Origin: Patescibacteria group bacterium
GTDB taxonomy: Bacteria > Patescibacteriota > Microgenomatia > UBA12405
Direction: 5' to 3'
Length of the DNA: 64,000 nucleotides
NCBI GenBank assembly: GCA_023380755.1
Contig: JAMCSD010000006.1
Coordinates: 120,385-184,384, forward strand
Both the position numbers and the translations under genes were made by a program. Below are positions 1,545 to 55,655 of the stretch, one piece after another (positions within the stretch are counted from its first letter, which is position 1; each line of letters begins with the position of its first letter). The notes under the pieces were generated by a model. The model did no database searches. It saw only the letters and a program-made list of their open reading frames with translations, and was not told where the DNA came from.

Positions 1545-4500
1545 ATGCTTGTTGCAAATTACTAAAGACCAGGTTCAGCGCATTATCTGTTCCCTTAGCA
1601 GTTATCGTCACCATGTCTGATGAATGGCTTTCATTGCCGGCCTTATCTAGGGAAATCGCTCGCAAGTGATAGACCTTTGACGGTGTCAGGCTTGACACAA
1701 TTACCAAATGATTAAGTGTTAGGTTTAAATCCTTTTGTGACTTTTGCGAGTAGTTGTCCCCAGCTCCTTCAGAGAATTCAATTTGAGAGGTTGCCGGTTC
1801 GTCAGTTGTCCAGGACACTAACAGTTGGGAACTGATCTCTTCCGCCGCTCCCGATACTGGTGGCACTGCTTTACTTTCAATCGTTAAATCGGAAATCATT
1901 GGCGGTCGGGTGTCCGTCGCGGTGGTAAATACCTGGACATCACTATCGGCCTCATTCCCAACTTTATCCCGGCCCTTTACTACTAGCACATACCGGGTGT
2001 CATCGCTCAAACCCTTAATGATCATCTGGTGCAAACCCTTAATCATGGTTAGATTTACCTGGTCTTGGGCCGATCCCGCCATTCCGTCCGGATAATACGT
2101 TATAATTGACGACAACTCCGTGTTACTGTTCCATGACACCAAAATCGTCGGTTGGGCTGTATTGATGACTTGCTGGATTTTAATATCTGACACTGTTGGC
2201 CGGGGCAGGGTGGCAAACTGGTGGTCCTCAAAGTCATATTTATTACCGTCGGCATCCTCTAGCTCAATCATGTAATGATAAGTTGTCCCATCATCCAGCT
2301 TGGTCAGTTTGACTGAATACGTACTTTCACTGGTCGCGGTGTTCATGCTCGAAGCGCCGCCATAAGCACTCGTCTTACCATAAAAAATGGTAGCTTTCGA
2401 GGCATTATCTACTGTCATTGTGATTAAGGCACTGCTCAGCGAAATATCGCTTTCCTTTACCGACGATACCGACGGTGCTGCTTGGGTGGCAAATGATTTT
2501 TCATCACTGGTTCCTGTATTCCCATCCTCGTCGGTCCATTTTGCCCGGTAATAGTATGTTTTTCCCGGAGTTAAGTTTGTCAGGTTTATTGTGTGGTCGG
2601 TCACTTGGGAAGAATTTGATGGTTCTTCGTCCTGATAACTATTGCTGCTCGTACCGTATTCCACTTTGGAATCACTGCTCCGGTCGGTGCTCCAGGTAAT
2701 TTTTGCCTTTTTAGTGGTAATACTCGATGCTCCTGGCCCCGACGTTAGGCTGGCGGCACTGGTATAGCGGCCGGTGGGATATTTGCTGGCCGTGGTCGAA
2801 TACGCCGAACAATTATTCGCCGAATCGCAAGCGGTGACACAATAATAATAAGTTTTTTGGGTTAAACCGGTATCTGTATAAGTTGTTCCCGAAGTCGACC
2901 CCACCACTGAAAAGGCGCTGGGTGTGGTGGCACATACCGCATTGGCCGTAGCGCTCCGGTAGACCTTGTAAGTCGCGATACCCGATCCCACCGAAGTCGG
3001 GGCATCCCACGACACCGCCAGCTTCCAATTTGAAGTTGATTTAATCGAAATATCCGATACATCAGTATTCCGTGGTGCCCCGGGAGCCGAAGTGTTGGCC
3101 GTAAAAGTCGCTTCGGCATAAGTGCCATAGTTCACATTACCCGCCTCATCCTTGGCCACTACATCCAAAAAATTTGCCCCATACTGAGTGGCAAAGGCCG
3201 CTGCTGCCAAACTTGTTCCTGTCATCCAATTACCCGTACATAAAAGTGCCGATGGATGGGCATTCACTGTGTAGCAGTAAGTTAGTCCGCCCTCTAATCC
3301 AGAATAAGTTGTTGGTATTGTCCACGAGAAAGCAAAGGAATTATCGGTATTCGTCGCCGGCGTCGCCGTTAGGCTGTTTGGCTCCGATGGCGCGTTCCCG
3401 GAGTATTTCAGTACTGCCGTAATATAAGTGGTGGTCACATTACAGGTGTTGTCCCATGTCCTCAATCTGAAAGTATTTTCCCCATTATTATTAGTTGATA
3501 AAGTGTCGTAGTTACTGTCTAGGGTATAAGATCCGGTGCTGGGACTTAACACATCATTACAATCTTCGGCCCCACTATGGTTAGTGCCATACCATTTCCC
3601 GTCATTAATTTGGTATTGGTAACCCTTAATTCCCGAATCGTTATCTTTGGCGGCCGAAACTCCACTGGTGGCCCAATAAATCGTAAAATCACTCAACGAA
3701 TTTTTGTATGTTTGTGGCGCCGATAACCCCGAAGGATTGGTCGGCAATTGGTTGTCATATCTAAAGGCGGCCACATCTTGGTAAAGTGACGAATCTCCGC
3801 TCCAGACATTACCCGCCTGGTCAACTGCTTTAATCGACAGGTAATATTCTTTTCCCGATGTTAACGTTAATCCAGCAATATTACCCACATTTAAAGAATT
3901 ATAGGTGGTCATGAACGGGCAGTATGTTTGCACTATGCCATCATCTAATCCCGCCAAAGCCCCGCCGGTGGTGGCTGGGTCCAAATGGGTCGAGGTCCCG
4001 GTAGAGCCGCTCCCGATAGTCGTGGCCTCCAACGCCAAACAATAGCCAAAAATACCGCTGCCGCCGCCATTATCGGCGCCGGCTGTCCAGGTTATTGTCG
4101 GGGCGGCGTTCAGCCAATCACCGCTGCTGTGTCCACTCACCCCCACTCCGCTGGCATTGGTTGTCGGCCGGGTTAGGTCCACTACCAAGCTGGCTGTCTG
4201 ATAATTTCCCGCACTGGTTGTGTTCCCGTTACTATCTGTCGCTCGAAAATAAACTGTATATGACCCTTCGGTTAATGCCGGCGACACCGTACAACTAAAA
4301 CTCACCGGACTTGTATTAAAGGAGCCGCTACAATTCGCCCAGCCGCCGCTCGTTGTTGCTCCCACCTGGTAATCCACCATGCTCACCGTTCCATAATCAT
4401 CTGTTGCTGTCCCGGTAAATGTCGGGGTACTGTCGTTGGTCGGTGTAGTCTCGCCAATGGCGGAAATGGTTGGCGGCGTATTGTCATGGCTAATAAATAT

Positions 4501-6012
4501 TTCCGTACTATCAGTACTGATCGTTCCTAAGTATTGGAACAAAAGAATATCGGTGGTGATTCTTGATTCGATTGGGGTTGTCGAATAGGTTCCCGAAGTT
4601 AGCCGTCCCCGCACATAAAACAGAGTCCGGCCGCTATTGAGGCTCGTTGCCGTCCAACTAGTCGGATCACTGCTCCAATAAACCGTTCCCGAAGTTGTCA
4701 GATTACTCACCCCGGTTACCGTTTCCGATACTCCCAGTCCCGCCCAGGCAGCACCGTTCCAGTATTCCCAAGTTATTGTCGGACTCGAGCCGCTGCCGTT
4801 TCGGTTCAAGTTAATATTAATACCCCGGAATTTCGACGTTGATCCAAAAGCAATATAATCCTGATTACCGGCAAAACTAATCGTATAATTTTTCGTAGCG
4901 CTATTTAAATATTCGTTATCCGATCCGGTATACCCGGCATCTGCCAGCTGAGTATAAACACTGCCGGAGTTGGCATAAAACCACGCCTCCGAGAAGGGGA
5001 GAATGTCATCGTTATAATTAGTTCCTTTGGTTTGAGTTACCCCGCCCACCGTTACCTGGGCCGGATCATCTTGCGACCGCCAATTTCTAATCTTAAAAGC
5101 CGGATCCAGCCGGTTATAAGTTCCGCCGTTTATTGTCAAATCAATTTGGATGTTATCCGCATTTAGAACGTAAGCCCCCTCTTGTTCATTAAAAAAGTCA
5201 CTGGTTCCCACCGAATATTCATTAGCATCAAACCAGCCGCTTCCTTTGGATAGTGAACCGCTGAAATCTGCTGGATTGCGGTAGTCTTGCATGTTGCTGG
5301 TTACCGTGCTGGCGGTCGACCGGTAATGTGACAAATCAAACAACACTGTTCCCGAGGTTCCCGTATTTTTTACCCATCCGTACCCTGACGAATGAATGCC
5401 GTCATCACCCCACCCGCCGTTCCCAAAATCATTCGGAGTCCAAGCTTCAATGTTAATTCCGGCAAAGTTATTGTTAGTCGTATCGCTTAATAGCCAGGTC
5501 TGATTAGTTCCATCAAATGTTTGCACTTGTGGAGCATTACTTGTTACCCCCACTTCTTCAGCTAAGTTGTAGTAATAAGTCCCGTTCCACCACATATGGA
5601 CGTAGCTTTTGGCGTCTCCCCAGGTCACCCACGAAACGCCTTGATTGGCATTAGAATTCAGGATTTTGGCCCTTGTCGGAGTCGACTCCAGCAGTTGAAA
5701 AGCTGTTGGTGTCTGTTGGGCCCAAAACCCGGCCAGGTTATCATGGTTATCTCCGCATGATCCGCTATTGCCCACCAAAGGAGTTTGGCCGTTATTAATT
5801 GAGGTGTGATACAGCTGTTTTCCAAAAGCCACATCGCAGTTTTTGGTCACTAACTTAACCGTCCCATTATCGGTGGTAATTGAGGTCGCATCTCGCGTAA
5901 TTGTTAACGAGGCTGCCTCCACCCCCCTAGGTAATACTAGCAAAAATATCCCTATCCATAGGCATAAAAATTTCCCAATTCCGCGCTTAATACTCACATT
6001 TACATCATACAA
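1516..6012 (-). CDS. Giant secreted or surface protein (1498 aa) made of repeated FN3/Ig-like beta-sandwich modules
   Basis: N-terminal signal peptide (LCLWIGIFLLVLPRGVEAAS). The composition is rich in Thr, Ser, Asn and Gly with repeated about 100-aa units carrying FN3-like motifs (KTYYYRAKWTDEDGNTGTS, TYHYMIELEDADGN, RYVLVVKGRDKVGN). It sits directly upstream of the ABC exporter genes and overlaps them. Confidence 0.6.
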   Translation of the reverse strand: MYDVNVSIKRGIGKFLCLWIGIFLLVLPRGVEAASLTITRDATSITTDNGTVKLVTKNCDVAFGKQLYHTSINNGQTPLVGNSGSCGDNHDNLAGFWAQQTPTAFQLLESTPTRAKILNSNANQGVSWVTWGDAKSYVHMWWNGTYYYNLAEEVGVTSNAPQVQTFDGTNQTWLLSDTTNNNFAGINIEAWTPNDFGNGGWGDDGIHSSGYGWVKNTGTSGTVLFDLSHYRSTASTVTSNMQDYRNPADFSGSLSKGSGWFDANEYSVGTSDFFNEQEGAYVLNADNIQIDLTINGGTYNRLDPAFKIRNWRSQDDPAQVTVGGVTQTKGTNYNDDILPFSEAWFYANSGSVYTQLADAGYTGSDNEYLNSATKNYTISFAGNQDYIAFGSTSKFRGININLNRNGSGSSPTITWEYWNGAAWAGLGVSETVTGVSNLTTSGTVYWSSDPTSWTATSLNSGRTLFYVRGRLTSGTYSTTPIESRITTDILLFQYLGTISTDSTEIFISHDNTPPTISAIGETTPTNDSTPTFTGTATDDYGTVSMVDYQVGATTSGGWANCSGSFNTSPVSFSCTVSPALTEGSYTVYFRATDSNGNTTSAGNYQTASLVVDLTRPTTNASGVGVSGHSSGDWLNAAPTITWTAGADNGGGSGIFGYCLALEATTIGSGSTGTSTHLDPATTGGALAGLDDGIVQTYCPFMTTYNSLNVGNIAGLTLTSGKEYYLSIKAVDQAGNVWSGDSSLYQDVAAFRYDNQLPTNPSGLSAPQTYKNSLSDFTIYWATSGVSAAKDNDSGIKGYQYQINDGKWYGTNHSGAEDCNDVLSPSTGSYTLDSNYDTLSTNNNGENTFRLRTWDNTCNVTTTYITAVLKYSGNAPSEPNSLTATPATNTDNSFAFSWTIPTTYSGLEGGLTYCYTVNAHPSALLCTGNWMTGTSLAAAAFATQYGANFLDVVAKDEAGNVNYGTYAEATFTANTSAPGAPRNTDVSDISIKSTSNWKLAVSWDAPTSVGSGIATYKVYRSATANAVCATTPSAFSVVGSTSGTTYTDTGLTQKTYYYCVTACDSANNCSAYSTTASKYPTGRYTSAASLTSGPGASSITTKKAKITWSTDRSSDSKVEYGTSSNSYQDEEPSNSSQVTDHTINLTNLTPGKTYYYRAKWTDEDGNTGTSDEKSFATQAAPSVSSVKESDISLSSALITMTVDNASKATIFYGKTSAYGGASSMNTATSESTYSVKLTKLDDGTTYHYMIELEDADGNKYDFEDHQFATLPRPTVSDIKIQQVINTAQPTILVSWNSNTELSSIITYYPDGMAGSAQDQVNLTMIKGLHQMIIKGLSDDTRYVLVVKGRDKVGNEADSDVQVFTTATDTRPPMISDLTIESKAVPPVSGAAEEISSQLLVSWTTDEPATSQIEFSEGAGDNYSQKSQKDLNLTLNHLVIVSSLTPSKVYHLRAISLDKAGNESHSSDMVTITAKGTDNALNLVFSNLQQAFGFIGPLSK

Positions 6013-46624: not shown

Positions 46625-46795
46625 TCTCGTTAGTTCCTAAACCGCTTGGGTTTTTGATTATCATAATCACTGACCCCGGCGGTTTTTTTTGTTTAAAAAT
46701 TACCTGCACCCATACGGCAAAAACTAAGATATTGTTTACCAGCATTTGGTACCCTTTTTCTTAATCTTTGCCCGTATGGGTGTAACTGTCGTCTT

Positions 46796-47143
46796 TTACC
46801 ACTTCGGGATTTCGACGACGACTTCGCCATCTGGATCCTGGAGCACTATCCTGACAGCGTTTTTTTGGCTGTCCCTTTGGGTCAGATTAGTAAAATTCTT
46901 TCCGATCCACAACAGGCGGCACCAGATATTCCCGACCACTCTCACTTCGGAATCCTCTGGGAAAAACACTGTCCTAACTGCGTGCTCATCTTCGACTACC
47001 AGCATATAGCCTTCGGCCACACTGACGCTGGTGACTAGTCCCTGATAAGCGAAATTTAGAATTGGGGTCTCCGGGGCACAAAGCTTGGCCAGTCTTTCGC
47101 GCTCCAACCGCAGCTCTTCAGCTGTCCACTTTCTCGGGTTCAT
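46796..47143 (-). CDS. Hypothetical protein (about 115 aa); start re-assigned to the ATG at 47143
   Basis: An AAGGGAGGA ribosome-binding site sits 7 nt upstream of the ATG at 47143-47141. The track start (47206) would place the N-terminus inside a structured RNA motif. The gene lies in the GC-elevated block. Confidence 0.45.
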   Translation of the reverse strand: MNPRKWTAEELRLERERLAKLCAPETPILNFAYQGLVTSVSVAEGYMLVVEDEHAVRTVFFPEDSEVRVVGNIWCRLLWIGKNFTNLTQRDSQKNAVRIVLQDPDGEVVVEIPKW

Positions 47144-47169
47144 GAAAATCCTCCCTTTTAAACGAACTT

Positions 47170-47222
47170 GAGTATTTCGTCCTTTCGGACTCATCGGGTC
47201 TGACACTCATCAGACGATACTC
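47170..47222 (-). ncRNA. Hammerhead-ribozyme-like motif (type III topology) in the intercistronic leader
   Basis: The minus-strand RNA reads GAGUAUC / GUCUGA-UGAGUG-UCAGAC / CCGAUGA / GUCC-GAAA-GGAC / GAAA / UACUC. It has stem III from its two ends, a stem I hairpin, a stem II hairpin GUCC-GAAA-GGAC, the GAAA core and an NUH site (AUC). It deviates from the core only at position 4 (C instead of U). A perfect CUGAUGAG copy also occurs in loop I. Confidence 0.4.
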
Positions 47223-47310
47223 ACCCCACACCTCGACCCCGAGACCAAAAAACTTGAAACCGCACGAGGGCTTCTTGTCTTTTGGTCTCTGTAGGCCGGG
47301 TGTTTAGAGC

Positions 47311-48585
47311 TTAGCTAGTGCGCGGATCGAAGTCCAACTTGACCCACTTACCGTTAACGAACATTTCAAACCACTTGTCCGCGACGAAGTCGTCATGGAC
47401 GTAATGACTCGAATCATGGCGGGGATCAGGGTCCCACACACGGCGAAGGTCACGATCCTCCAAGTTCGTCCCGCCCCATTCGAGGTGAGCCGGAAAAGGA
47501 TTCTTGCCTTCACGGTCCGAATGCTGCAGGAAGACCCGCATTTCCACGTCACCACTTCGGGCCATTTCCGTGAGCATTCGACGGAAGAGGGTGTAGCGGG
47601 TCCAGTAAATCGTGTGCTCTGCGGGAGACTCAACAAACACAATCCGTTCATCGCGAACCGGAGGTCGTAAGCCTTTGCCGGCAGGGAGTAGCTTCCAGAC
47701 CAGACGATTGTTCTCGAAGGCCATGGTCAAACCATTGGCCATCCACACCATTATCGAAACGGTCGCTTCACCATTCCAGTACTCCGCCTCCCCAGCCGTC
47801 AGGTTCCACTTGGCGACCCGAGCCGTATGCAGCTCTGCAAAGTCAACCTCTCTCGATGGCGAAGTGGCGGCTTTTGTCTTCGGTTCCTCGGTCTGAGCCT
47901 GTTGGCTTGCTCGCTTGGCGGCGATTTGGGCATCGCTCCATTCGGTCTCCAAGCACCAAGGCTTAGCCCGCAACACCGGATTGCCATTTCGGTCCGTGGT
48001 GTCGATGACGATGAACTTGACACCAGTGCCGACTCGGGGCGCATAATCCAACAAGCTAGGTGTCCAGGTTACTGACCCGTCGGCGCCCAAGGTGGGTAAG
48101 CCATGGTCATTCTGGTCGAAGAACACCTCATCGTTGGCGCTATTTACGTTGAAGAAACCCTGGGACATCCAGTGGAACGGGTACTTGAGTACCTTACCAT
48201 CGATTATGCCCCGAGGCGTTGTCGTCGCCGAGAGCGGCTGCTCCTTGGCCCAATCATAGTTTTTCTCAAAAGCCCAGAGTATTGCCGGCCGTCGATTGCC
48301 TTCTTCGGGCTTTTCGTCGCTGGCGATAAAGACTATCTGGTCACCAACTCTTGGCTCTGGTAGTACGTCATCAGGAAAGCTCGAGGGAACCCATTCCAGG
48401 TGATCGGCGACGGGGCGGATAAAGTAGCCCGCATTCCGGTGAATGAAGAATTCCTCCGGCATGCCGTCAGGTCCTTTGCTAATAGCATACCCAAAGTGTC
48501 GTCCGATGTTGTTCCAGCGGACAATACGTCCCACCTTCAAACCGTCGGTGCTGAACCACAAACTCTGCGGTTGATTCCTGCTCAT
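47311..48585 (-). CDS. Protein with N-terminal cold-shock domain followed by further OB-like segments and a long unknown C-terminal region (424 aa)
   Basis: Residues 18-55 (GRIVRWNNIGRHFGYAISKGPDGMPEEFFIHRNAG) match the CSD signature (GxVKWFNxxKGFGFI...DxFVH). AAAAGGAGA ribosome-binding site. GC-rich codon usage that is atypical for the window. Confidence 0.5.
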   Translation of the reverse strand: MSRNQPQSLWFSTDGLKVGRIVRWNNIGRHFGYAISKGPDGMPEEFFIHRNAGYFIRPVADHLEWVPSSFPDDVLPEPRVGDQIVFIASDEKPEEGNRRPAILWAFEKNYDWAKEQPLSATTTPRGIIDGKVLKYPFHWMSQGFFNVNSANDEVFFDQNDHGLPTLGADGSVTWTPSLLDYAPRVGTGVKFIVIDTTDRNGNPVLRAKPWCLETEWSDAQIAAKRASQQAQTEEPKTKAATSPSREVDFAELHTARVAKWNLTAGEAEYWNGEATVSIMVWMANGLTMAFENNRLVWKLLPAGKGLRPPVRDERIVFVESPAEHTIYWTRYTLFRRMLTEMARSGDVEMRVFLQHSDREGKNPFPAHLEWGGTNLEDRDLRRVWDPDPRHDSSHYVHDDFVADKWFEMFVNGKWVKLDFDPRTS

Positions 48586-48783
48586 CGGAAAGTCTCCTTT
48601 TTACGAACAAAGTTTACGAACATTTTGGTCACAATGACCTATCTGTCCCGACGTGACGTCGGGATACATAGGCCACTGCGACCTTAACTTAAGCTCTATA
48701 GGGTGTTAAAGAACTATTTGGAATATCCAAATATGTTATTATTATCTCACATTATAGGATAAAAATCAAACCCTGTTATATAA

Positions 48784-49692
48784 TTAACCATCAAAGTTTT
48801 ACTGTTAACCGCTGCCACTCTGATTGCCCTTTTTTATCTTAAGTTGTTTATTCCCGCCTCGGTCACTGCCCCGACCCAACCCCGGCCGTCACCCACTCTC
48901 ACTCCGACTCCCATCCCTAGCCCTACCTCTACTCCCACCCCGCTACCTACGTCCACCCCCCGTCCGACTCCTCGCCCTTCGCCCTCCGTAGTTTCAACAA
49001 AGGAGGGTCCCAAAACCGGCCAATCCGTCACCATCGATAGCGGCACCTTCACTGTCAACGTTATTTCAGCTAATTTAAATGACACCAAGGTAGTGGTGGA
49101 TACCGCCTCCGACTCCGATTGTGCCAACAACTGCCCGGTCAAATCTTTGGCTGAATTTGCCCAAAGGCGTGGCGCTATTGCTGCCATCAATGGGCCTTAT
49201 TTTTGCCCCGGAAGTTATCCCGCCTGTGCCGGCAAAACTAACTCCTTCGATACCCTCCTGATGAATCTCAACAAAACCTACTTTAATTCCAATAATAATG
49301 TTTACAGCCAAAACCCGGTCGCCATCTTTTCGGCTACTTCCCGTTTTGTCGCCGCTGGCCAGGAGTGGGGGAGAGATACTTCGGTAGATTCCGTCATTAT
49401 GAGCCGGCCCCTTTTAGTCTTTAATAACGAAGTCAAATTTTTTGGTAATGGTGACTCCAAGGAAACGGAAAAAGTCAGCCGGGCTTTTATTGGCGCCACC
49501 GGCTCGACAGTTTATATCGGCGTGGTTTACACTGCTTCGGTCGCCGACATGGCCAAAGTTTTACAAAAAATGGGTATCCAAAATGCCCTTAATTTAGACA
49601 GCTCTGGCTCCCTGGCTTTCTGGGCCAATGGCCGCTATCTCGCCGGTCCCGGCCGCAATACTCCTTTTGGCATTCTTTTAGTCAAGCGCTAA
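48784..49692 (+). CDS. Secreted phosphodiester-glycosidase-family (DUF2233/NAGPA-like) protein with Pro/Thr-rich linker
   Basis: The hallmark ALNLDSSGS (compare NLDGGGS) and AINGPYF (compare INGGFF) motifs are present. The track start (TTG at 48844) is probably too far downstream, because the in-frame upstream extension from 48784 encodes a signal/TM segment LLLTAATLIALFYL. Confidence 0.5.
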   Translation, partial: LTIKVLLLTAATLIALFYLKLFIPASVTAPTQPRPSPTLTPTPIPSPTSTPTPLPTSTPRPTPRPSPSVVSTKEGPKTGQSVTIDSGTFTVNVISANLNDTKVVVDTASDSDCANNCPVKSLAEFAQRRGAIAAINGPYFCPGSYPACAGKTNSFDTLLMNLNKTYFNSNNNVYSQNPVAIFSATSRFVAAGQEWGRDTSVDSVIMSRPLLVFNNEVKFFGNGDSKETEKVSRAFIGATGSTVYIGVVYTASVADMAKVLQKMGIQNALNLDSSGSLAFWANGRYLAGPGRNTPFGILLVKR

Positions 49693-49700
49693 TTGATCTC

Positions 49701-49994
49701 TTGTCCTTTCGGGTTTTATTCGGGTATACTTATCTTATGAATCTCAAGGTCGATGTCCCGGTTGCCGTTACCTTATTATACGAGCCCAAAGGGGCCAAAA
49801 TCTGCCCTTTGGCCGTTCGCTGGGATGGCCGGGTTTACCGGATTAGCAAATTAGGCTTGCACCACACCTTCCGTGAGGGCCGCACCCTTTACCATGTTTT
49901 TTCCGTGGCTTCGGAAACCGCCTTTTTTCGTTTAGTTTTAAACACCGACAACTTATTTTGGCGCCTAACGGAGGTCTCTGATGGTGAATCCTAA
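49701..49994 (+). CDS. Small hypothetical protein translationally coupled to the Y-family polymerase (possible accessory factor)
   Basis: It overlaps the downstream polymerase gene by 14 nt. An ATG at 49737 is an alternative start. No recognised motif. Confidence 0.4.
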   Translation: MSFRVLFGYTYLMNLKVDVPVAVTLLYEPKGAKICPLAVRWDGRVYRISKLGLHHTFREGRTLYHVFSVASETAFFRLVLNTDNLFWRLTEVSDGES

Positions 49995-51249
49995 GCCGGT
50001 CATTGGACTGCCCTTCAACCAAAAGCCTTCCACCCTGCTCCATATCGACCTTAATTCCTGCTTTGCCACCATTGAGCAGCAGGCCAATCCCTTGCTCCGC
50101 GGCCGGCCCATTGCCGTGGCGGCCTACACTACTCCTTCCGGCTGTATCTTGGCCCCATCGGTGGAGGCCAAACGCCTCGGCGTTAAGGTCGGCATGCGGG
50201 TCAAAGAGGGGAAACTCTTGTGTCCGGACCTCCAAATCCTTGGCCCCGACCCCTGGAAATACCGCAATATTCATCTCCAGCTGAAGACCCTCCTTTCCCA
50301 ATACAGTGCCTCTGTAGTCCCTAAATCCATTGATGAATTTGTCGTCGACCTGGAGGGTTACCCCAGTTTTCAGTGGGGGGTTCAGACCGCCGCCCAAACT
50401 ATCAAAAATCGCATTAAACAGGAAATTGGCGACTGGCTGACGGTTTCCGTCGGCATCGGCCCCAACCGTTTTTTGGCCAAACTCGCCGCTGGCCTCAAAA
50501 AACCCGATGGCCTGGAAGAAATTAACTGCCAAAATTATTCTGATGTTTATCGCCACTTAACTTTAATGGATATTACCGGCATTAAAAAGGCCAATACTGC
50601 CCGCCTTAATTCTGTCGGCGTCTATACCGTCCTCGATTTTTACCGCGCCCCGGTTTCCGCTCTGCGCTCGGCTTTTCATTCTATTAACGGCTATTACTGG
50701 TACTTGCGCCTCCGTGGCTGGGAGATTGATGACGTAGATTTCGGCCGTAAAAGCTTTGGCAACATGTATTCTTTGCCGGAAACCAAAACTACTCCCGAGG
50801 AGCTTTCTCCCATTCTTCACAAACTGGTGGAAAAGTCGTCTGAGCGCATGCGGAGTGCTGGCTACTTTGCCCGCGGCGTCCATGTGGCCCTCCTTTATCG
50901 TGACCATTCTTTTTGGCATCATGGCCATGTCAGCCACGATCTCCTTTACGACCCCCGCGACGTTTACAAATCTGCCTTTCGCATTTTAACCGCCGCTCCC
51001 TACCGCAAACCGGTGGCCAACCTCGCCATTTCTTGTTTTGATTTACAAAAGACTGCCACCTGCCAACTCGATCTTTTCCGTGACCTTAATCGGCAAACCC
51101 GGTTGGTTGATGCTATTGATGATGTCAACCAGCGTTGGGGTAGCTTTGTCATTACTCCGGCGGCCATGTTGGCTGCCCGCGACCTGGTTCCCGACCGGAT
51201 TGCCTTTGGTGGCGTCAAAGAATTAGAGCAGTATATTTTGGCAAAATAA
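49981..51249 (+). CDS. Y-family DNA polymerase (DinB/UmuC-like)
   Basis: LLHIDLNSCFATIEQ (compare HVDMDCFFAAVE) and the catalytic SIDEFVVDLEG motif are present, with a C-terminal little-finger region. Confidence 0.75.
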   Translation: MVNPKPVIGLPFNQKPSTLLHIDLNSCFATIEQQANPLLRGRPIAVAAYTTPSGCILAPSVEAKRLGVKVGMRVKEGKLLCPDLQILGPDPWKYRNIHLQLKTLLSQYSASVVPKSIDEFVVDLEGYPSFQWGVQTAAQTIKNRIKQEIGDWLTVSVGIGPNRFLAKLAAGLKKPDGLEEINCQNYSDVYRHLTLMDITGIKKANTARLNSVGVYTVLDFYRAPVSALRSAFHSINGYYWYLRLRGWEIDDVDFGRKSFGNMYSLPETKTTPEELSPILHKLVEKSSERMRSAGYFARGVHVALLYRDHSFWHHGHVSHDLLYDPRDVYKSAFRILTAAPYRKPVANLAISCFDLQKTATCQLDLFRDLNRQTRLVDAIDDVNQRWGSFVITPAAMLAARDLVPDRIAFGGVKELEQYILAK

Positions 51250-51317
51250 CCCGATTTTGTGAGATAATACTCCGTCTTTTGATTTCGCACTTTCACATAC
51301 TAAGGAAGGTTATTTGT

Positions 51318-51731
51318 ATGTTGCAACAACTACTGTTCGCCACCCCCGATCGTCGCCAAACCGGTCAACTTTATTACTTAGCTTACAATTTGCCGGGAAA
51401 TCATATCTTTTTCACCGTTACAAAAAATGAGATAGTTGGAGTTGATTTTCGTGCTTTTGCCGTTGCTCAAATTAAAAGTGATCTAAAAATTCCTGAGTAC
51501 GCTCTCAACTACTTCTACTTTGAAATCTGTACTCACCGACTCTACCCAGAACTTCAATCAGGCGAATATCGGGTCAATATTTGTGTCCCCAGTCAACGAC
51601 ATGGTCGAAACATGGTCGACGTCTATCCGTTTACGAGTACTCTTACTCAAGGTCCGCTCACTTTCAACACCCACACCTTGTGGACGCTACCATTCGAAGT
51701 GACAAAAGAGTTTGCTGAGTTTATTGCCTAA
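51318..51731 (+). CDS. Hypothetical protein, paralog 1 of an unknown family
   Basis: AAGGAAGG ribosome-binding site. It shares motifs with the next gene (LWTLPFEVTKEFAEFI versus LWQLPKAVLHEFRTYI, and SGEYRVNICVPSQRH versus PGEYEAYYVFCQRRN). Confidence 0.45.
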   Translation: MLQQLLFATPDRRQTGQLYYLAYNLPGNHIFFTVTKNEIVGVDFRAFAVAQIKSDLKIPEYALNYFYFEICTHRLYPELQSGEYRVNICVPSQRHGRNMVDVYPFTSTLTQGPLTFNTHTLWTLPFEVTKEFAEFIA

Positions 51732-51739
51732 GGAGTCAC

Positions 51740-52369
51740 ATGAGAATCATTAAATCGGAGCTTCTGCCGGCTAATGCCAGCCTTGTGGTTTACAGCCGCT
51801 ACCTCGATCAAATTTTCTTTACTGGCTTGTCCCCCTTTGGCCGGGCCATGTCCACGGTCAATCAAGCCGAAGAAATTATCATTGCTCTTTGCCAGCAGGA
51901 AAGGCTTGATCTTCACGGCACGATGTTTTTTGACCTCCGGACCCATCTTCAATATGACTATTTGCGCCCCGGAGAGTATGAAGCTTATTATGTTTTTTGC
52001 CAGCGCCGCAATCTCCACGTTAGCCTCCACTGGCAGCTTATGTCAGCTAACACCGACCGCTTTAAAACCCGTGACCTTTGGCAACTTCCTAAGGCCGTTC
52101 TCCATGAATTTCGTACCTACATCTTTGCTCCCCGCTGGGGTGAGGAAGTGACCCTCAACCTCGTCGATTGGATTGCCGGACTGACTCCCGATGAAGTTGA
52201 AAAGGAAATAAATACTCTCGTCCAGTCTGCCAATCTGCAACTCCAACCATCGGATAAAGAAACCACTGCTATCCAGTTGCGGCTCGCCCTGCGCCATTTT
52301 TTCGAAAATCCCTCACGTTACTCTCATTTACCTACCGTTTCGGCAGCCTTAGCCCCGATCCCTCTTTAG
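51740..52369 (+). CDS. Hypothetical protein, paralog 2 of the same unknown family
   Basis: See paralog 1. Tandem arrangement with an 8-nt intergenic gap. Confidence 0.45.
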   Translation: MRIIKSELLPANASLVVYSRYLDQIFFTGLSPFGRAMSTVNQAEEIIIALCQQERLDLHGTMFFDLRTHLQYDYLRPGEYEAYYVFCQRRNLHVSLHWQLMSANTDRFKTRDLWQLPKAVLHEFRTYIFAPRWGEEVTLNLVDWIAGLTPDEVEKEINTLVQSANLQLQPSDKETTAIQLRLALRHFFENPSRYSHLPTVSAALAPIPL

Positions 52370-52578
52370 TGGCCGCCGCGACTCAACCATCACCTTCCTT
52401 GTTGTAAAAATGCCCCGCCGCCTTCGGTCATACTGGTTCGTTTCTACCACAGAAACAACAACCCTAAAACCGAAGCAGCGGGGCAAAAACAAATCCGATT
52501 TTCCCGTAATACTAACCATCCTATAATATTGATTTTTCCCTTAATTTCTGATATTATCCACACTCGATAGTAAGAAAT

Positions 52579-52600
52579 GCCTCTCTGCGAGGCTTTTTTC
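52579..52600 (+). terminator. Rho-independent terminator
   Basis: Stem gcctc-tctgc-gaggc followed by tttttt. Confidence 0.5.
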
Positions 52601-52723
52601 TTGCTTTATTTTTGTACTTTAACAACCCGAGAGTATTTACACCTAACTTTGGAATGATGCGTTCGCTGTGCCCCGCTACCGCGGGATAGAGTGAACGTAT
52701 CAATCTACAAAGGAAGGTTAATC

Positions 52724-54445
52724 ATGTTTACCCGCCAGTTTCGTTTTTTACCGTTAGCCGTATACATTATCATTCTGTCTGCCTGCGCTACGTCCGTTGC
52801 GGTTACCGGTAGCGGTACTCCCATGGAGTATCTTTACGATCAGGTCTCGCAAGGGACACTCGCTGCCTGGGGTTTTGCCCACCTCGTGGTGCCTATACTC
52901 TGGGCTTGTGTGGTCGGTGTCGTTCTTGGCGCCTTCACCAATAAAGGCGTTGGTTTTATTGCCGGTATTGTTGTCGCGGTTGGTATCTTTATTTTCATGT
53001 CTGGTGATATCAACAATCGTGCTGATGCCCAGGGCATTCATGCCATGACTGCTGGTTTCGACCAAGCCAAGACTAATAAAGCCAATGTCTACATCGAAGT
53101 TTTGCATGTTCCGATAGTGGCTGCCACGGTTCAAACCCGCTCTTGCCGCTCCTCCATCAATTCCTCGACAGGTTGCGGTCCCTATGAATGGAGCCACGAA
53201 GTTAATCCTCATAAGTGCAACTGCACCTGCACCAGCAAGACCAAAAGTGGAACTTGTCTTAGTGAATCCTGTAACACCTGTTGGGATACAGAATACGTTC
53301 CGTACTTTAACCAGCTCGATCAGTATGCCATACGTGTTCGGATGATGGACTCGCTAGCTAATTCCGAAACGGGACTCACCAAAGATCCCAACACCAAGGA
53401 TTGCCCGACGCGTATCCTCTCCGATCATTGGATGGTACCGCCTGACTATAACAGTCACTGGTATGGAGGCAGCCGCTATCAGGTTAAAGCATCCGACTAC
53501 ACCCCACCCGCTGATTGGACTTTGTACTCCAACGCCTTGAAAAACAACACCATTCCTTTGGCGAATGTCTATCACCAGTATACTAATTGGACCTTCGCCT
53601 CCGACGCTACGGTCTACCGACAGACGCAAAACAATGTCGCTACCTACCAAAAAGCCGGACTCTTGCCGACTATGAATACCATATATAGTCGCCTTGGTCA
53701 GGGCTGGCCGGCGGCTTACGACTTTGTCCAATTCGTTGGTGGCCTCCATGTACCCCAGGATCAATACCAAGCTTGGCAAGATCTCGCGAGCACCTTCAGT
53801 ACCTTCTTTGGCAATGACCGCCAAGGTTCACTTGAGTTGGTCTTTGCGCCGAAGACTGCTGTTGATTCGCTGGGTACGGTCGATCTTTGGGCCGATACCA
53901 TCAGGGCTGCTTATTCTGCCAAGGGTGCTTGGGACTTTAGCCTCAACGGCCAAAAACTCCAGCGGCTAATGCCCAAGAACATGTTCATCATCGCCTGCGA
54001 AGTGGACGGCAACACCATCCCCGCCGCTGGCTGTCGTTTCCGCACCGGAATGCCTCAAGGCAACGAGCAAGTCATTGATGACTTTGCTACCGGTCGGCCG
54101 ACCCAACTTCTGAACATGACCTTCGCGCCAGTAAGCTTCTTTGGTGATCTTAAAGCCGTCCCGGCTCCCGGTAAAGACGGTTTCCCGGTGGTCAAATTAC
54201 AGCGAGACGGCAATCATCCGATTGATCTTCTCTTGCGCGATGACCCCGCCGGTGTTCGTCGTATCAGTATGAAAGGGTACGATTATCTGAAAGCGGATAT
54301 CACCTTGGACCAGTCAGAAATGACGGCCTTGGTTAACGCCGAGATTAAGGTCCAATCCGATGCCGCCCTCGTCTCAATAATCATCCCGATCGTGGCTTTA
54401 GTCATTGTCGGATTTGGTTTGGTTGCTATCAAGAGTCAGAGTTAA
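52724..54445 (+). CDS. Large Cys-rich membrane/surface protein (N-terminal lipobox-like signal, TM segments, Cys-rich extracytoplasmic domain, C-terminal TM anchor)
   Basis: AAGGAAGG ribosome-binding site before the ATG at 52724. Lipobox-like IILSAC, two further TM helices, a cysteine cluster (CRSSINSSTGCGPYEW...CNCTCTSKTKSGTCLSESCNTCW) and a C-terminal TM helix. Confidence 0.5.
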   Translation: MFTRQFRFLPLAVYIIILSACATSVAVTGSGTPMEYLYDQVSQGTLAAWGFAHLVVPILWACVVGVVLGAFTNKGVGFIAGIVVAVGIFIFMSGDINNRADAQGIHAMTAGFDQAKTNKANVYIEVLHVPIVAATVQTRSCRSSINSSTGCGPYEWSHEVNPHKCNCTCTSKTKSGTCLSESCNTCWDTEYVPYFNQLDQYAIRVRMMDSLANSETGLTKDPNTKDCPTRILSDHWMVPPDYNSHWYGGSRYQVKASDYTPPADWTLYSNALKNNTIPLANVYHQYTNWTFASDATVYRQTQNNVATYQKAGLLPTMNTIYSRLGQGWPAAYDFVQFVGGLHVPQDQYQAWQDLASTFSTFFGNDRQGSLELVFAPKTAVDSLGTVDLWADTIRAAYSAKGAWDFSLNGQKLQRLMPKNMFIIACEVDGNTIPAAGCRFRTGMPQGNEQVIDDFATGRPTQLLNMTFAPVSFFGDLKAVPAPGKDGFPVVKLQRDGNHPIDLLLRDDPAGVRRISMKGYDYLKADITLDQSEMTALVNAEIKVQSDAALVSIIIPIVALVIVGFGLVAIKSQS

Positions 54446-54465
54446 GTAATCGGAGGTAAAAACAC

Positions 54466-55446
54466 ATGAACCGCAAGAATAGTTTGACCCTGTTTGCCCT
54501 TTCGCTCGTCATCGCTTTGCTCGCTGCCTGTGGCTCTCCGGCTCAAACCGCCCTCGGTTTGTCCGCTGGTTTGAAAACCGCTTATATAGAAGCGGATACG
54601 GTCTACAGTCAGCTAGTCACCCAAGAAACCACCATCGACGCCGATTACCAAGTCTGGATGGAATCGTACAGTACGATGTTGGCTGGTGCCGGGGATCAGC
54701 TCACGCTGGTCAACCAGTGCTTCAGCAACACCGCCACAGTGATTGCCCAGGCAGCTAATAGCGTTTTCTCCAAGGATGCCAACGGTAACCCCGTTTCGGC
54801 AGCCGATGAAAACAAGGCCTTCATCAATGCCTTAGGTACGGGTGGCTCACTTTATGCCGGGAACGTTGACAAATGCCAGCAAGCCGCCTTGGATCTTATG
54901 TCCTATGTCCGCGTCAAGCGTGACAGCTTGCTTGGTGCTCGGACCAAGATCATTGACGAACTTCGTGCCTACGACTTGAGCCAGGTACGCAATCTCAAAA
55001 TTGCCACGGTGATGCACTTCTACAACCAGTACGGGCCTGAACTGGCACAACTGGAACAGAAGGGCGAAACCGCCCTCCTCGATGCGGTCGCTTCCGGTGC
55101 CGGCCTCCAGCCGATGCCGATTACCTTCATTGGTTTTCCGACTTCGGCGTTGAAGGTTGAGTCCCGCAGTCAGGATATCTGTTCGTATTATTACGGCCTG
55201 TATACCGGCGAAACCAAGACGCCCCAGAATCGGAATAAGGAGTTGTACTTAACGGATGACTGGAATCCGGCTTTAAAGAGCTGTCAGCTCTATCGTTACT
55301 CGGCTTATGAGTACATGAGCCGGGCGTTCCTGACTCAGCAAGCCTCAGTCCGCATTGATTGTGGACAAGATGCCGGAATTCAGGACAAAATGAATCCCGA
55401 TTGCACCGTCTCTTCACCGACCGCCGAACCCACCAAGACCAAGTAA
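54466..55446 (+). CDS. Lipoprotein, hypothetical (326 aa)
   Basis: Signal peptide with lipobox LLAACGSP, immediately downstream of the Cys-rich protein. Confidence 0.5.
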   Translation: MNRKNSLTLFALSLVIALLAACGSPAQTALGLSAGLKTAYIEADTVYSQLVTQETTIDADYQVWMESYSTMLAGAGDQLTLVNQCFSNTATVIAQAANSVFSKDANGNPVSAADENKAFINALGTGGSLYAGNVDKCQQAALDLMSYVRVKRDSLLGARTKIIDELRAYDLSQVRNLKIATVMHFYNQYGPELAQLEQKGETALLDAVASGAGLQPMPITFIGFPTSALKVESRSQDICSYYYGLYTGETKTPQNRNKELYLTDDWNPALKSCQLYRYSAYEYMSRAFLTQQASVRIDCGQDAGIQDKMNPDCTVSSPTAEPTKTK

Positions 55447-55457
55447 ATACTCTCGCT

Positions 55458-55520
55458 CACTAGCGCTCGACCTGAAGGGGTTTTCCTTTCGAGAACCCCT
55501 TCTCTTTGACCGCGCTAGTG
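55458..55520 (+). terminator. Nested double-hairpin terminator-like element
   Basis: An outer 9-bp stem cactagcgc/gcgctagtg encloses an inner hairpin gaaggggtt/aaccccttc. Confidence 0.4.
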
Positions 55521-55655
55521 TGTCTGTCCTTCTACAAATGTGCGTTTGTACTGATGAGACCAAAAGGTCGAAAAGGATACACAGTAGATATATAATAAGT
55601 TGTTCCTTAAAAGTCTTGTTGGAATGCATTGATATATACACACCCAAAGGAGTTC

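Follow-up and report, generated by a model that had tools for sequence, protein, structure and literature searches.

A probable type III hammerhead ribozyme with a variant core between two genes of a Patescibacteria genome

The 64,000-nucleotide (nt) stretch of Patescibacteria DNA analysed here (hereafter the window, at its full length) carries on its minus strand an RNA element, HH1, which we read as probably a genuine type III hammerhead self-cleaving ribozyme of a phage/Patescibacteria subfamily. It would cut a two-gene mRNA, and the C that it carries at core position 4 (C4) in place of the consensus U would be tolerated, probably at the price of slower cleavage. As the initial annotation of this DNA had it, HH1 sits between two co-directional genes: it lies in the 167-nt spacer between a gene for a protein of 424 amino acids (aa) and a gene for a protein of 115 aa, both on the minus strand. 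The two genes and the parts of HH1, all on that strand, are as follows.

47311..48585, minus strand: upstream gene, 424 aa, without close homologues
47169..47223, minus strand: HH1, predicted hammerhead ribozyme, type III, C4 core variant, whole element (full-length RF00008 match, score with the model R2 described below, minimum free energy (MFE) fold)
47217..47223, minus strand: stem III 5' strand UGAGUAU, U16.1 at 47217, pairing with AUACUCA at 47175..47169
47216, minus strand: C17, the cleavage-site base (from the sequence)
47216/47215, minus strand: predicted cleavage 3' of C47216, between 47216 and 47215
47198..47215, minus strand: stem I, GUCUGA (47215..47210) with UCAGAC (47203..47198), 6 bp
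47209..47204, minus strand: loop I, UGAGUG, 6 nt
47191..47197, minus strand: core strand CCGAUGA, with C3 at 47197 and the variant C4 at 47196 (consensus U; sequence and RF00008 alignment)
47179..47190, minus strand: stem II, GUCC/GGAC, 4 bp, with a GAAA tetraloop
47178..47176, minus strand: core G12 A13 A14 (RF00008 alignment)
47175..47169, minus strand: stem III 3' strand AUACUCA, A15.1 at 47175
46796..47143, minus strand: downstream gene, 115 aa, no homologue in 5.8 billion proteins

Fold and model scores of HH1

The minus-strand sequence from 47222 to 47170 is GAGUAUCGUCUGAUGAGUGUCAGACCCGAUGAGUCCGAAAGGACGAAAUACUC, identical to that initially reported. Folded alone, this 53-mer has a type III three-way junction as its MFE structure (-17.1 kcal/mol, z = -2.98); an equally stable fold is reached by 2 of 200 shuffles. 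Three helices meet at the junction, stems I and II being closed by loops and stem III being open, a topology common to the MFE structure and to the alignments with RF00008 and R2; the junction and the full-length RF00008 alignment bear out the complete type III order proposed earlier (stem III, C17, 6-bp stem I, 4-bp stem II). Stem III reaches 7 bp once its outermost pair, U47223-A47169, is counted, and has a duplex energy of -6.2 kcal/mol. Every position of the type III core consensus is matched (G5 A6 N7 G8 A9, G12 A13 A14, A15.1-U16.1, H17) except U4, which is C. The A15.1-U16.1 pair in stem III and the C at H17, both pointed out initially, are seen in the sequence and in the RF00008 alignment, which equally confirms C4 (47196) as the one departure from the core. 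The likening of stem II to that of the classical satellite-type core also stands, the same GUCC/GGAC being present in three IMG/VR records of 322-457 nt (L008, L009 and L018; L numbers denote loci), of which L008 has a similar loop I as well. A perfect CUGAUGAG had been noticed in loop I. It is present and has no separate meaning, consisting of the 3' end of stem I (..CUGA) running into the conserved loop UGAGUG/UGUGUA; a second hammerhead register built on it was rejected, its stem I amounting to only 2 nt and its stem II mispairing after 2 bp.

When 4227 Rfam families were searched over the whole 64-kb window on both strands, the match of RF00008 (Hammerhead_3) at HH1 was the sole one with E<=1. 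RF00008 aligns to HH1 over its full length with 37.0 bits (E = 2.4e-4). The covariance-model match envisaged in the initial annotation hence exists, at a score below the RF00008 gathering score of 48.5, and nothing in the window is reported at Rfam gathering thresholds. We also used R2, a covariance model whose training set consisted of 53 related hammerheads from other loci, the window sequence being excluded. With filters off, R2 gives HH1 68.7 bits (rough E 4.6e-18) and a second element, HH2, absent from the training set, 63.9 bits; the best match in the window beyond these two has 11.9 bits.

55525..55579, plus strand: HH2, second hammerhead of the same subfamily, canonical CUGAUGA core, stem II GACC/GGUC (R2, RF00008)
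55532, plus strand: predicted HH2 cleavage, 3' of C55532
55455..55523, plus strand: long hairpin between the stop codon of the gene at 54466..55446 and HH2 (MFE -39.5 kcal/mol, z -7.6)

HH2 escaped the whole-window Rfam E-value scan and scores 38.2 bits with RF00008 when a small region is searched, likewise below 48.5. Since this element has the canonical core, the Rfam shortfall of HH1 is not due to C4. The same is seen across 15 family loci (L027, L030, L035, L037, L041, L057, L063, L064, L066, L068, L082, L095, L014, L016 and L004), in which 29 covariance-model matches of 40-76 bits stand against zero hammerheads at the Rfam gathering threshold, where a single DUF805b motif and tRNAs are all that is reported; among the hammerheads below the cut-off are some whose core is canonical. 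The RF00008 cut-off excludes the whole phage/Patescibacteria subfamily and not HH1 specifically, and because every tested member falls below it, the sub-threshold score of HH1 says little. In the RF00008 alignments of both HH1 and HH2, loop I is longer than the model (an insertion) and loop II shorter, which may explain the shortfall. We note that the DUF805b RNA motif (RF02914, 50.8 bits, above cut-off) occupies L063:5265-5299 (+), 114 nt 3' of the hammerhead L063:5097-5151.

The subfamily and its hairpin-ribozyme layout

A scan of IMG/VR for the 21-mer GATGAGTCCGAAAGGACGAAA returned 17 contigs. Every match is a type III hammerhead, and its core is the canonical CUGAUGA. Several share with HH1 a stem I of 6 bp and the loop I UGAGUG, and this loop is identical in the phage hammerheads L004, L005, L010 and L016 and in L228. 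The subfamily is common to phage contigs, small plant-satellite-sized RNAs and, very commonly, genomes of Patescibacteria (also called the candidate phyla radiation, CPR). Its loop I is conserved (consensus UGAGUG/UGUGUA), with U15 invariant and G16 in at least 90% of members, as is its loop II (NAAA). Loops I and II hold tertiary contacts in type III hammerheads (PMC9901934), and conservation of both is as expected for interacting loops.

Compensatory changes among relatives, which the initial annotation had named as informative, are abundant: strong covariation is found in stems I and III at the level of the family, as distinct from the HH1 locus itself. In 54 distinct family sequences, 92% of the cells of stems I and III are paired, versus 66% in shuffles and 32-41% in slid registers; the set had been pre-filtered for paired stems, which inflates the percentage paired and leaves the excess over chance unaffected. 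Changes on both sides of a pair number 283 cells versus 84 in shuffles and touch 12 of the 14 pairs. The covariation score is 0.715, compared with 0.187 for shuffles, none of 500 of which reaches the observed value, and 0.08-0.09 for slid registers. Stem II was held constant by the search pattern, and its covariation was judged in members found only by the model, in which it takes the forms GUUC/GAAC, GCUC/GAGC and GACC/GGUC. A statistic cleaner than the percentage paired is the count of complete C4 hammerheads against the expectation from shuffled flanks, given in the next section.

The arrangement around HH1 comprises the following further features.

47224..47309, minus strand: long imperfect hairpin of 86 nt, occupying the full interval from the stop codon of the 424-aa gene to HH1 (MFE -46.0 kcal/mol, z -6.4 versus shuffles)
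47274..47256, minus strand: weak terminator-like stem (6 pairs, 3 of them G-C) with U6, inside the upstream hairpin
47156..47168, minus strand: conserved post-ribozyme motif AGUUCGUUUAAAA (recurrence of YTCKTT in the family)
47141..47155, minus strand: ribosome-binding site GGGAGG (47155..47150) and AUG (47143..47141) of the 115-aa gene (from the sequence)
48751..48779, minus strand: promoter-like ATAACA-17-TATAAT upstream of the 424-aa gene (consensus match only)

Consensus matching returned no promoter-like site between the 424-aa and 115-aa genes. HH2 repeats the order: the stop codon of the gene at 54466..55446 is followed by the hairpin, HH2, a 76-nt leader, a possible 94-aa open reading frame (ORF) and then a convergent gene for a GH5 cellulase. 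The two hairpin-ribozyme modules share the ribozyme alone and have no further copies in the window. The possibility that the HH1 and HH2 gene pairs are duplicates was discarded, as neither the 115-aa and 94-aa proteins nor the 424-aa and 326-aa proteins show any similarity. In 66 family members, the 70 nt upstream of the hammerhead have a mean folding z of -2.18, with 44% below -2, versus a mean of -0.46 and 6% below -2 for the 70 nt downstream. By crude ORF calls on 42 genome-derived cases, 36 have a same-strand gene upstream; on the downstream side, 26 have a gene in the same orientation and about 10 a convergent one, and the genes there are of many unrelated kinds. HH1 does precede the 115-aa gene, in keeping with its earlier description as the leader of that gene, whereas in the family as a whole the closer tie is to the 3' terminus of the gene upstream and to a hairpin just ahead of the ribozyme. 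A stop codon and a stable hairpin before both ribozymes of the window are suggestive of mRNA end-processing.

On the 3' side, YTCKTT (here AGTTCGTTTAAAA) begins no further than 14 nt beyond stem III in 15 of the 49 members taken from genomes, versus 0.8 expected, and in none of 18 viral ones; near-identical motifs follow the ribozymes at L063:1202-1215, 2433-2446, 3714-3727 and 5152-5165 and at L041:874-887. UUCGUU is complementary to GACGAA of the ribozyme, a possible competing pairing of which the TTCTTT versions are incapable.

In some loci three or four hammerheads are grouped into an array of about 2-4 kb, every copy lying between genes: L063:1147-5151 (4), L035:2599-6336 (4) and L078:5609-7252 (3), with further three-copy arrays at L014:868-3146 and L016:655-2540. 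C4 and U4 cores occur mixed in one array, and within a genome the hairpins upstream of the copies resemble each other. Taken together this suggests that hairpin and ribozyme spread as one unit. Two other candidate companions were dropped: ARAGORN finds no tRNA directly 5' of the phage hammerheads (GGGGTTCAAACCCC), where there is a plain hairpin, and the ORFs upstream of the Saccharibacteria copies with 'CTTGTCAT' before them are unrelated, leaving no shared gene family beside these copies.

Cytidine at core position 4

The scan for C4 cores covered one genome per species (GTDB) with the pattern CCGATGAGTCCN{3,8}GGACGAAA; it gave at least 82 matches, and the first 80 loci were taken. To pass the structural filter, a match needed U16.1, a base other than G at H17, no fewer than 3 bp in stem III and, in stem I, no fewer than 4 bp without a mismatch. 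Among the matches listed, 38 of 82 pass as complete CCGAUGA hammerheads versus 0.59 expected with shuffled flanks, and 33 of these 38 have a stem I of at least 6 bp and a stem III of at least 4 bp, versus 0.03 expected. Going by the titles of the records, metagenome-assembled genomes (MAGs) of Patescibacteria hold 28 of the 38, spread over Saccharibacteria, Paceibacterota and Shapiro-, Kaiser-, Yonath-, Doudna-, Moranii- and Staskawiczbacteria; the pattern matches that fail the filter are scattered coding-sequence matches in unrelated phyla. Where position 4 was free of selection by the pattern, in hammerheads near the pattern-selected ones, U and C number 10 and 1 in genome loci and 6 and 0 in viral loci. 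IMG/VR contains 16 loci that match the C4 pattern, of which, by eye, some 7 are of type III and some 6 have their stem III closed; the U4 pattern has at least 120 matches there. C4 is a minority variant, of roughly 5-10%. The deviation which the initial annotation had considered as possible degeneration is therefore real and not a one-off, since it recurs in at least 38 otherwise intact hammerheads.

Because C4 is also found in phage hammerheads with a closed stem III, U4C is not confined to the type III topology. Such IMG/VR copies, recognized by eye and having stem III closed by a hairpin (e.g. GAAA-CCCC-GAGA-GGGG-UC), lie at L102:6400-6423, L106:4230-4253, L110:4593-4616, L103:4518-4541 and L112:3073-3096.

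The reading of HH1 as a cleaving ribozyme has several observations weighing against it, beside the sub-threshold Rfam score and the pre-filtering of the covariation set dealt with above. The predicted MFE structure of HH1 in a 209-nt context is without stem III. PMC3088659 states, citing Ambros and Flores 1998, that U4C 'considerably decreases activity in vitro', and all single CUGA-turn mutants of a type III hammerhead had low activity (PMC9901934). The terminator-like stem with U6 could end many transcripts before HH1 is made. The search for an orthologous locus in 5.8 billion proteins found none that could show conservation of this particular copy, both flanking proteins matching only themselves. 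One other contig, L001, carries the locus, 100% identical and from the same source; a metagenome scan for the stem I of HH1 itself found nothing, and a looser one returned a single unrelated sibling, L228.

The low activities reported for U4C and for the CUGA-turn mutants would fit a relic, catalytically dead or nearly so through U4C and kept as a structured spacer (a folding insulator or stability element) in an mRNA that stays uncut. The rarity of C4 also speaks for such a view: among unselected hammerheads it is present in 1 of 11 from genome loci and none of 6 from viral ones, and in viral contigs it has 16 pattern matches versus at least 120 for U4. We nonetheless hold it to be unlikely. 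The other core positions of HH1, its H17, its A15.1-U16.1 pair and its three stems are intact; the 38 C4 copies found elsewhere have perfect stems, with means of 6.7 and 5.8 bp; and copies within one MAG (L019/L081), on one contig (L039/L072) and in one locus (two copies in L078) have kept C4 with stem III differing at several pairs in full complementarity, which argues for continued selection on the fold after the change to C4. Furthermore, a viroid with U4C self-cleaves enough in vivo for infectivity, as PMC3088659 relates from the same 1998 work. C4 is best read as a tolerated natural variant on a tertiary-stabilised scaffold and not as decay, and it probably slows cleavage.

Slowness might itself be what is selected, C4 serving to tune the rate, with partial processing as the outcome, or to gate cleavage by pH, Mg2+ or a protein partner; in the case of pH, a protonated C could restore the hydrogen bond donated by U4 in the U-turn. 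C4 does recur in many lineages, in type III as well as closed-stem-III hammerheads, and C4 and U4 copies coexist in single gene clusters (L063, L027, L030 and L035), with L063:1147 and L063:5097 as a C4/U4 pair that is otherwise near-identical. Perreault et al. (PMC3088659) suggested that slower phage variants may act under particular conditions. However, no feature of the alignment co-varies with C4, and a frequency of about 5-10% fits mild tolerance equally well as selection, such that we would give a gated HH1 little credence. Less probable by far is that the function at this site belongs to the upstream hairpin, which would terminate or attenuate transcription between the two genes, the resemblance of the adjoining sequence to a hammerhead being incidental. 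The hairpin of -46 kcal/mol does contain a terminator-like stem with UUUUUU at 47274..47256, but terminator-like matches in the HH1 region are no more numerous than in shuffles (2 vs 2.5), the hairpins upstream of other family members are mostly without a U-tract, the hammerhead match is far beyond chance with both RF00008 and R2, and no separate promoter-like site precedes the downstream gene. A self-cleaving HH1 with a tolerated C4 remains our preferred reading, and HH1 is placed on that basis in what follows.

Putative role in mRNA end formation

Starting from the observed sequence, fold, covariance-model membership, covariation, C4 recurrence and hairpin-ribozyme layout, we picture the following course of events. 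HH1 would be transcribed within a two-gene mRNA starting upstream of the 424-aa gene. Stems I-III would form, and the 2'-OH of C47216 would attack the adjacent phosphate, cutting between C47216 and G47215, as expected from family membership. Hammerhead cleavage leaves a 2',3'-cyclic phosphate and a 5'-OH (PMC6765202). The upstream mRNA would accordingly finish with the 86-nt hairpin, which is very stable, followed by a tail of 8 nt and a 2',3'-cyclic phosphate, and the downstream mRNA would begin with a 5'-OH and the compact ribozyme body, which would stand 25 nt before the start codon of the 115-aa gene. The 7-bp stem III, at -6.2 kcal/mol, would let the two RNA halves separate. The two cistrons would in this way gain independent ends and therefore, presumably, independent stability.

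Cleavage as a switch of access to the ribosome-binding site was considered and rejected, the probability that the Shine-Dalgarno (SD) sequence is unpaired being 0.73 before versus 0.81 after cleavage for HH1 and 0.43 versus 0.46 for HH2. Because cleavage leaves SD access unchanged, an effect on RNA ends and stability is more likely than one on translation initiation. Such a role has been proposed, not proven, for bacterial hammerheads (PMC3088659, PMC6765202); this idea becomes more specific through the companion hairpin and the tie of the element to the upstream gene's 3' end.

HH1 is a member of the type III class and is closest to the classical satellite-type form and to the prophage clusters described by Perreault et al. 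(2011). With the classical type III of plant satellites and virusoids (RF00008, stem II GUCC-GNRA-GGAC) it has in common the open stem III, predicted cleavage after C17, the core positions other than 4, A15.1-U16.1, a stem I of 6 bp closed by a 6-nt loop, and a GUCC/GGAC stem II capped by a tetraloop. It differs from that form in having C for U at position 4, in being DNA-encoded in a bacterial chromosome between protein-coding genes and not in a circular RNA replicon, and, like every tested member of its subfamily, in lying below the RF00008 gathering cut-off. RiboJ-type synthetic insulators likewise place a satellite-type hammerhead beside an mRNA hairpin, and cleavage gives a defined end whatever the upstream sequence; there the extra hairpin follows the ribozyme and exposes the ribosome-binding site. 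Unlike in RiboJ, the hairpin of HH1 precedes the ribozyme and would end the upstream mRNA, with SD access the same before and after cleavage.

The clustered prophage and genome hammerheads of Perreault et al. (PMC3088659) are intergenic and co-directional with their flanking genes, occur as several copies within a few kb (two in our window; up to four in L063 and L035) and have neighbours of varying identity, with processing of polycistronic mRNA as the proposed role. According to the same paper, clustered hammerheads flanking single genes cleaved in vitro within polycistronic transcripts of about 2 kb, and the triple arrangement of A. tumefaciens, once cloned, also underwent self-cleavage on transcription in E. 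coli. HH1 differs from those clusters in its host, a Patescibacteria genome, and in local genes without a phage signature; the stable hairpin on the 5' side and YTCKTT on the 3' side, recurrent in its subfamily, go unmentioned in the sections of PMC3088659 compared here. The viroid variant of Ambros and Flores 1998, as reported there, has the same substitution in an otherwise consensus type III hammerhead. It is a variant of one viroid, whereas here U4C is shared by chromosomal hammerheads from different species, at least 38 of them, and is seen in phage contigs as well. A literature search of incomplete coverage found no paper linking hammerheads with Patescibacteria, CPR or Saccharibacteria, which is weak evidence of novelty.

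As regards the neighbourhood, the C-terminal ~135 residues of the 424-aa protein are common to proteins of ~172 aa with an N-terminal cold-shock domain, PF00313 (full HMMER scan). Its module 1 resembles CspA (z about 7), and its module 2 resembles module 1. A structure model of low confidence (predicted local distance difference test score, pLDDT, 59.6) matches mostly OB/cold-shock folds (CSD, S1, IF1), none of them with E<=0.001. Together these point to a protein that probably binds nucleic acids; a likely RNA-binding protein, as a candidate, would hence be encoded directly upstream of the ribozyme. The model of the 115-aa protein (pLDDT 44) is unusable. A prophage or mobile-element context was rejected: there are no PHROG matches, and the neighbours are SRAP, DinB, NAGPA, DUF2807, GH5 cellulase and PMT_2. 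The GC-rich island of the initial annotation exists in a modest form, GC being 0.55 at 47-48 kb and ~0.50 over 46-56 kb versus ~0.46 elsewhere in the window. HH1 and HH2 face outward from a block of ~8.4 kb (47169..55579) of divergent genes, the 424-aa gene pointing leftward and NAGPA, DinB and further genes pointing rightward; this block has a GC of ~0.50, slightly higher than the ~0.46 of the window. Where the ends of the 115-aa gene (46796) and a DUF2807 gene (46624) converge, positions 46707..46782 hold a long imperfect inverted repeat (CACCCATACGGGCAAA ... TTTGCCGTATGGGTG, arms ~45 nt apart), which may be a shared terminator hairpin.

The element is of an ordinary ribozyme kind and changes nothing in the knowledge of RNA catalysis. 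The subfamily to which it belongs is abundant in Patescibacteria, occurs also in phage contigs and is invisible at the curated Rfam threshold, hence unannotated. U4, which is treated as invariant, is C in a sizeable minority of its intact natural copies, in disagreement with laboratory mutagenesis. As a more speculative proposal, which we regard as rather improbable, CCGAUGA hammerheads might form a selected functional subclass, making up ~5-10% of Patescibacteria and phage copies, whose slow or condition-gated cut (e.g. by protonation or Mg2+) would, with the upstream hairpin, set the share of operon mRNA that is split; if true, this would mean widespread ribozyme-based formation of mRNA 3' ends in a superphylum whose RNA metabolism is nearly unknown. 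The module as a whole consists of a stable hairpin and then a hammerhead; it directly follows a stop codon, frequently with a convergent gene opposite, and it raises the idea that bacterial hammerheads may make protected mRNA 3' ends and uncouple neighbouring cistrons.

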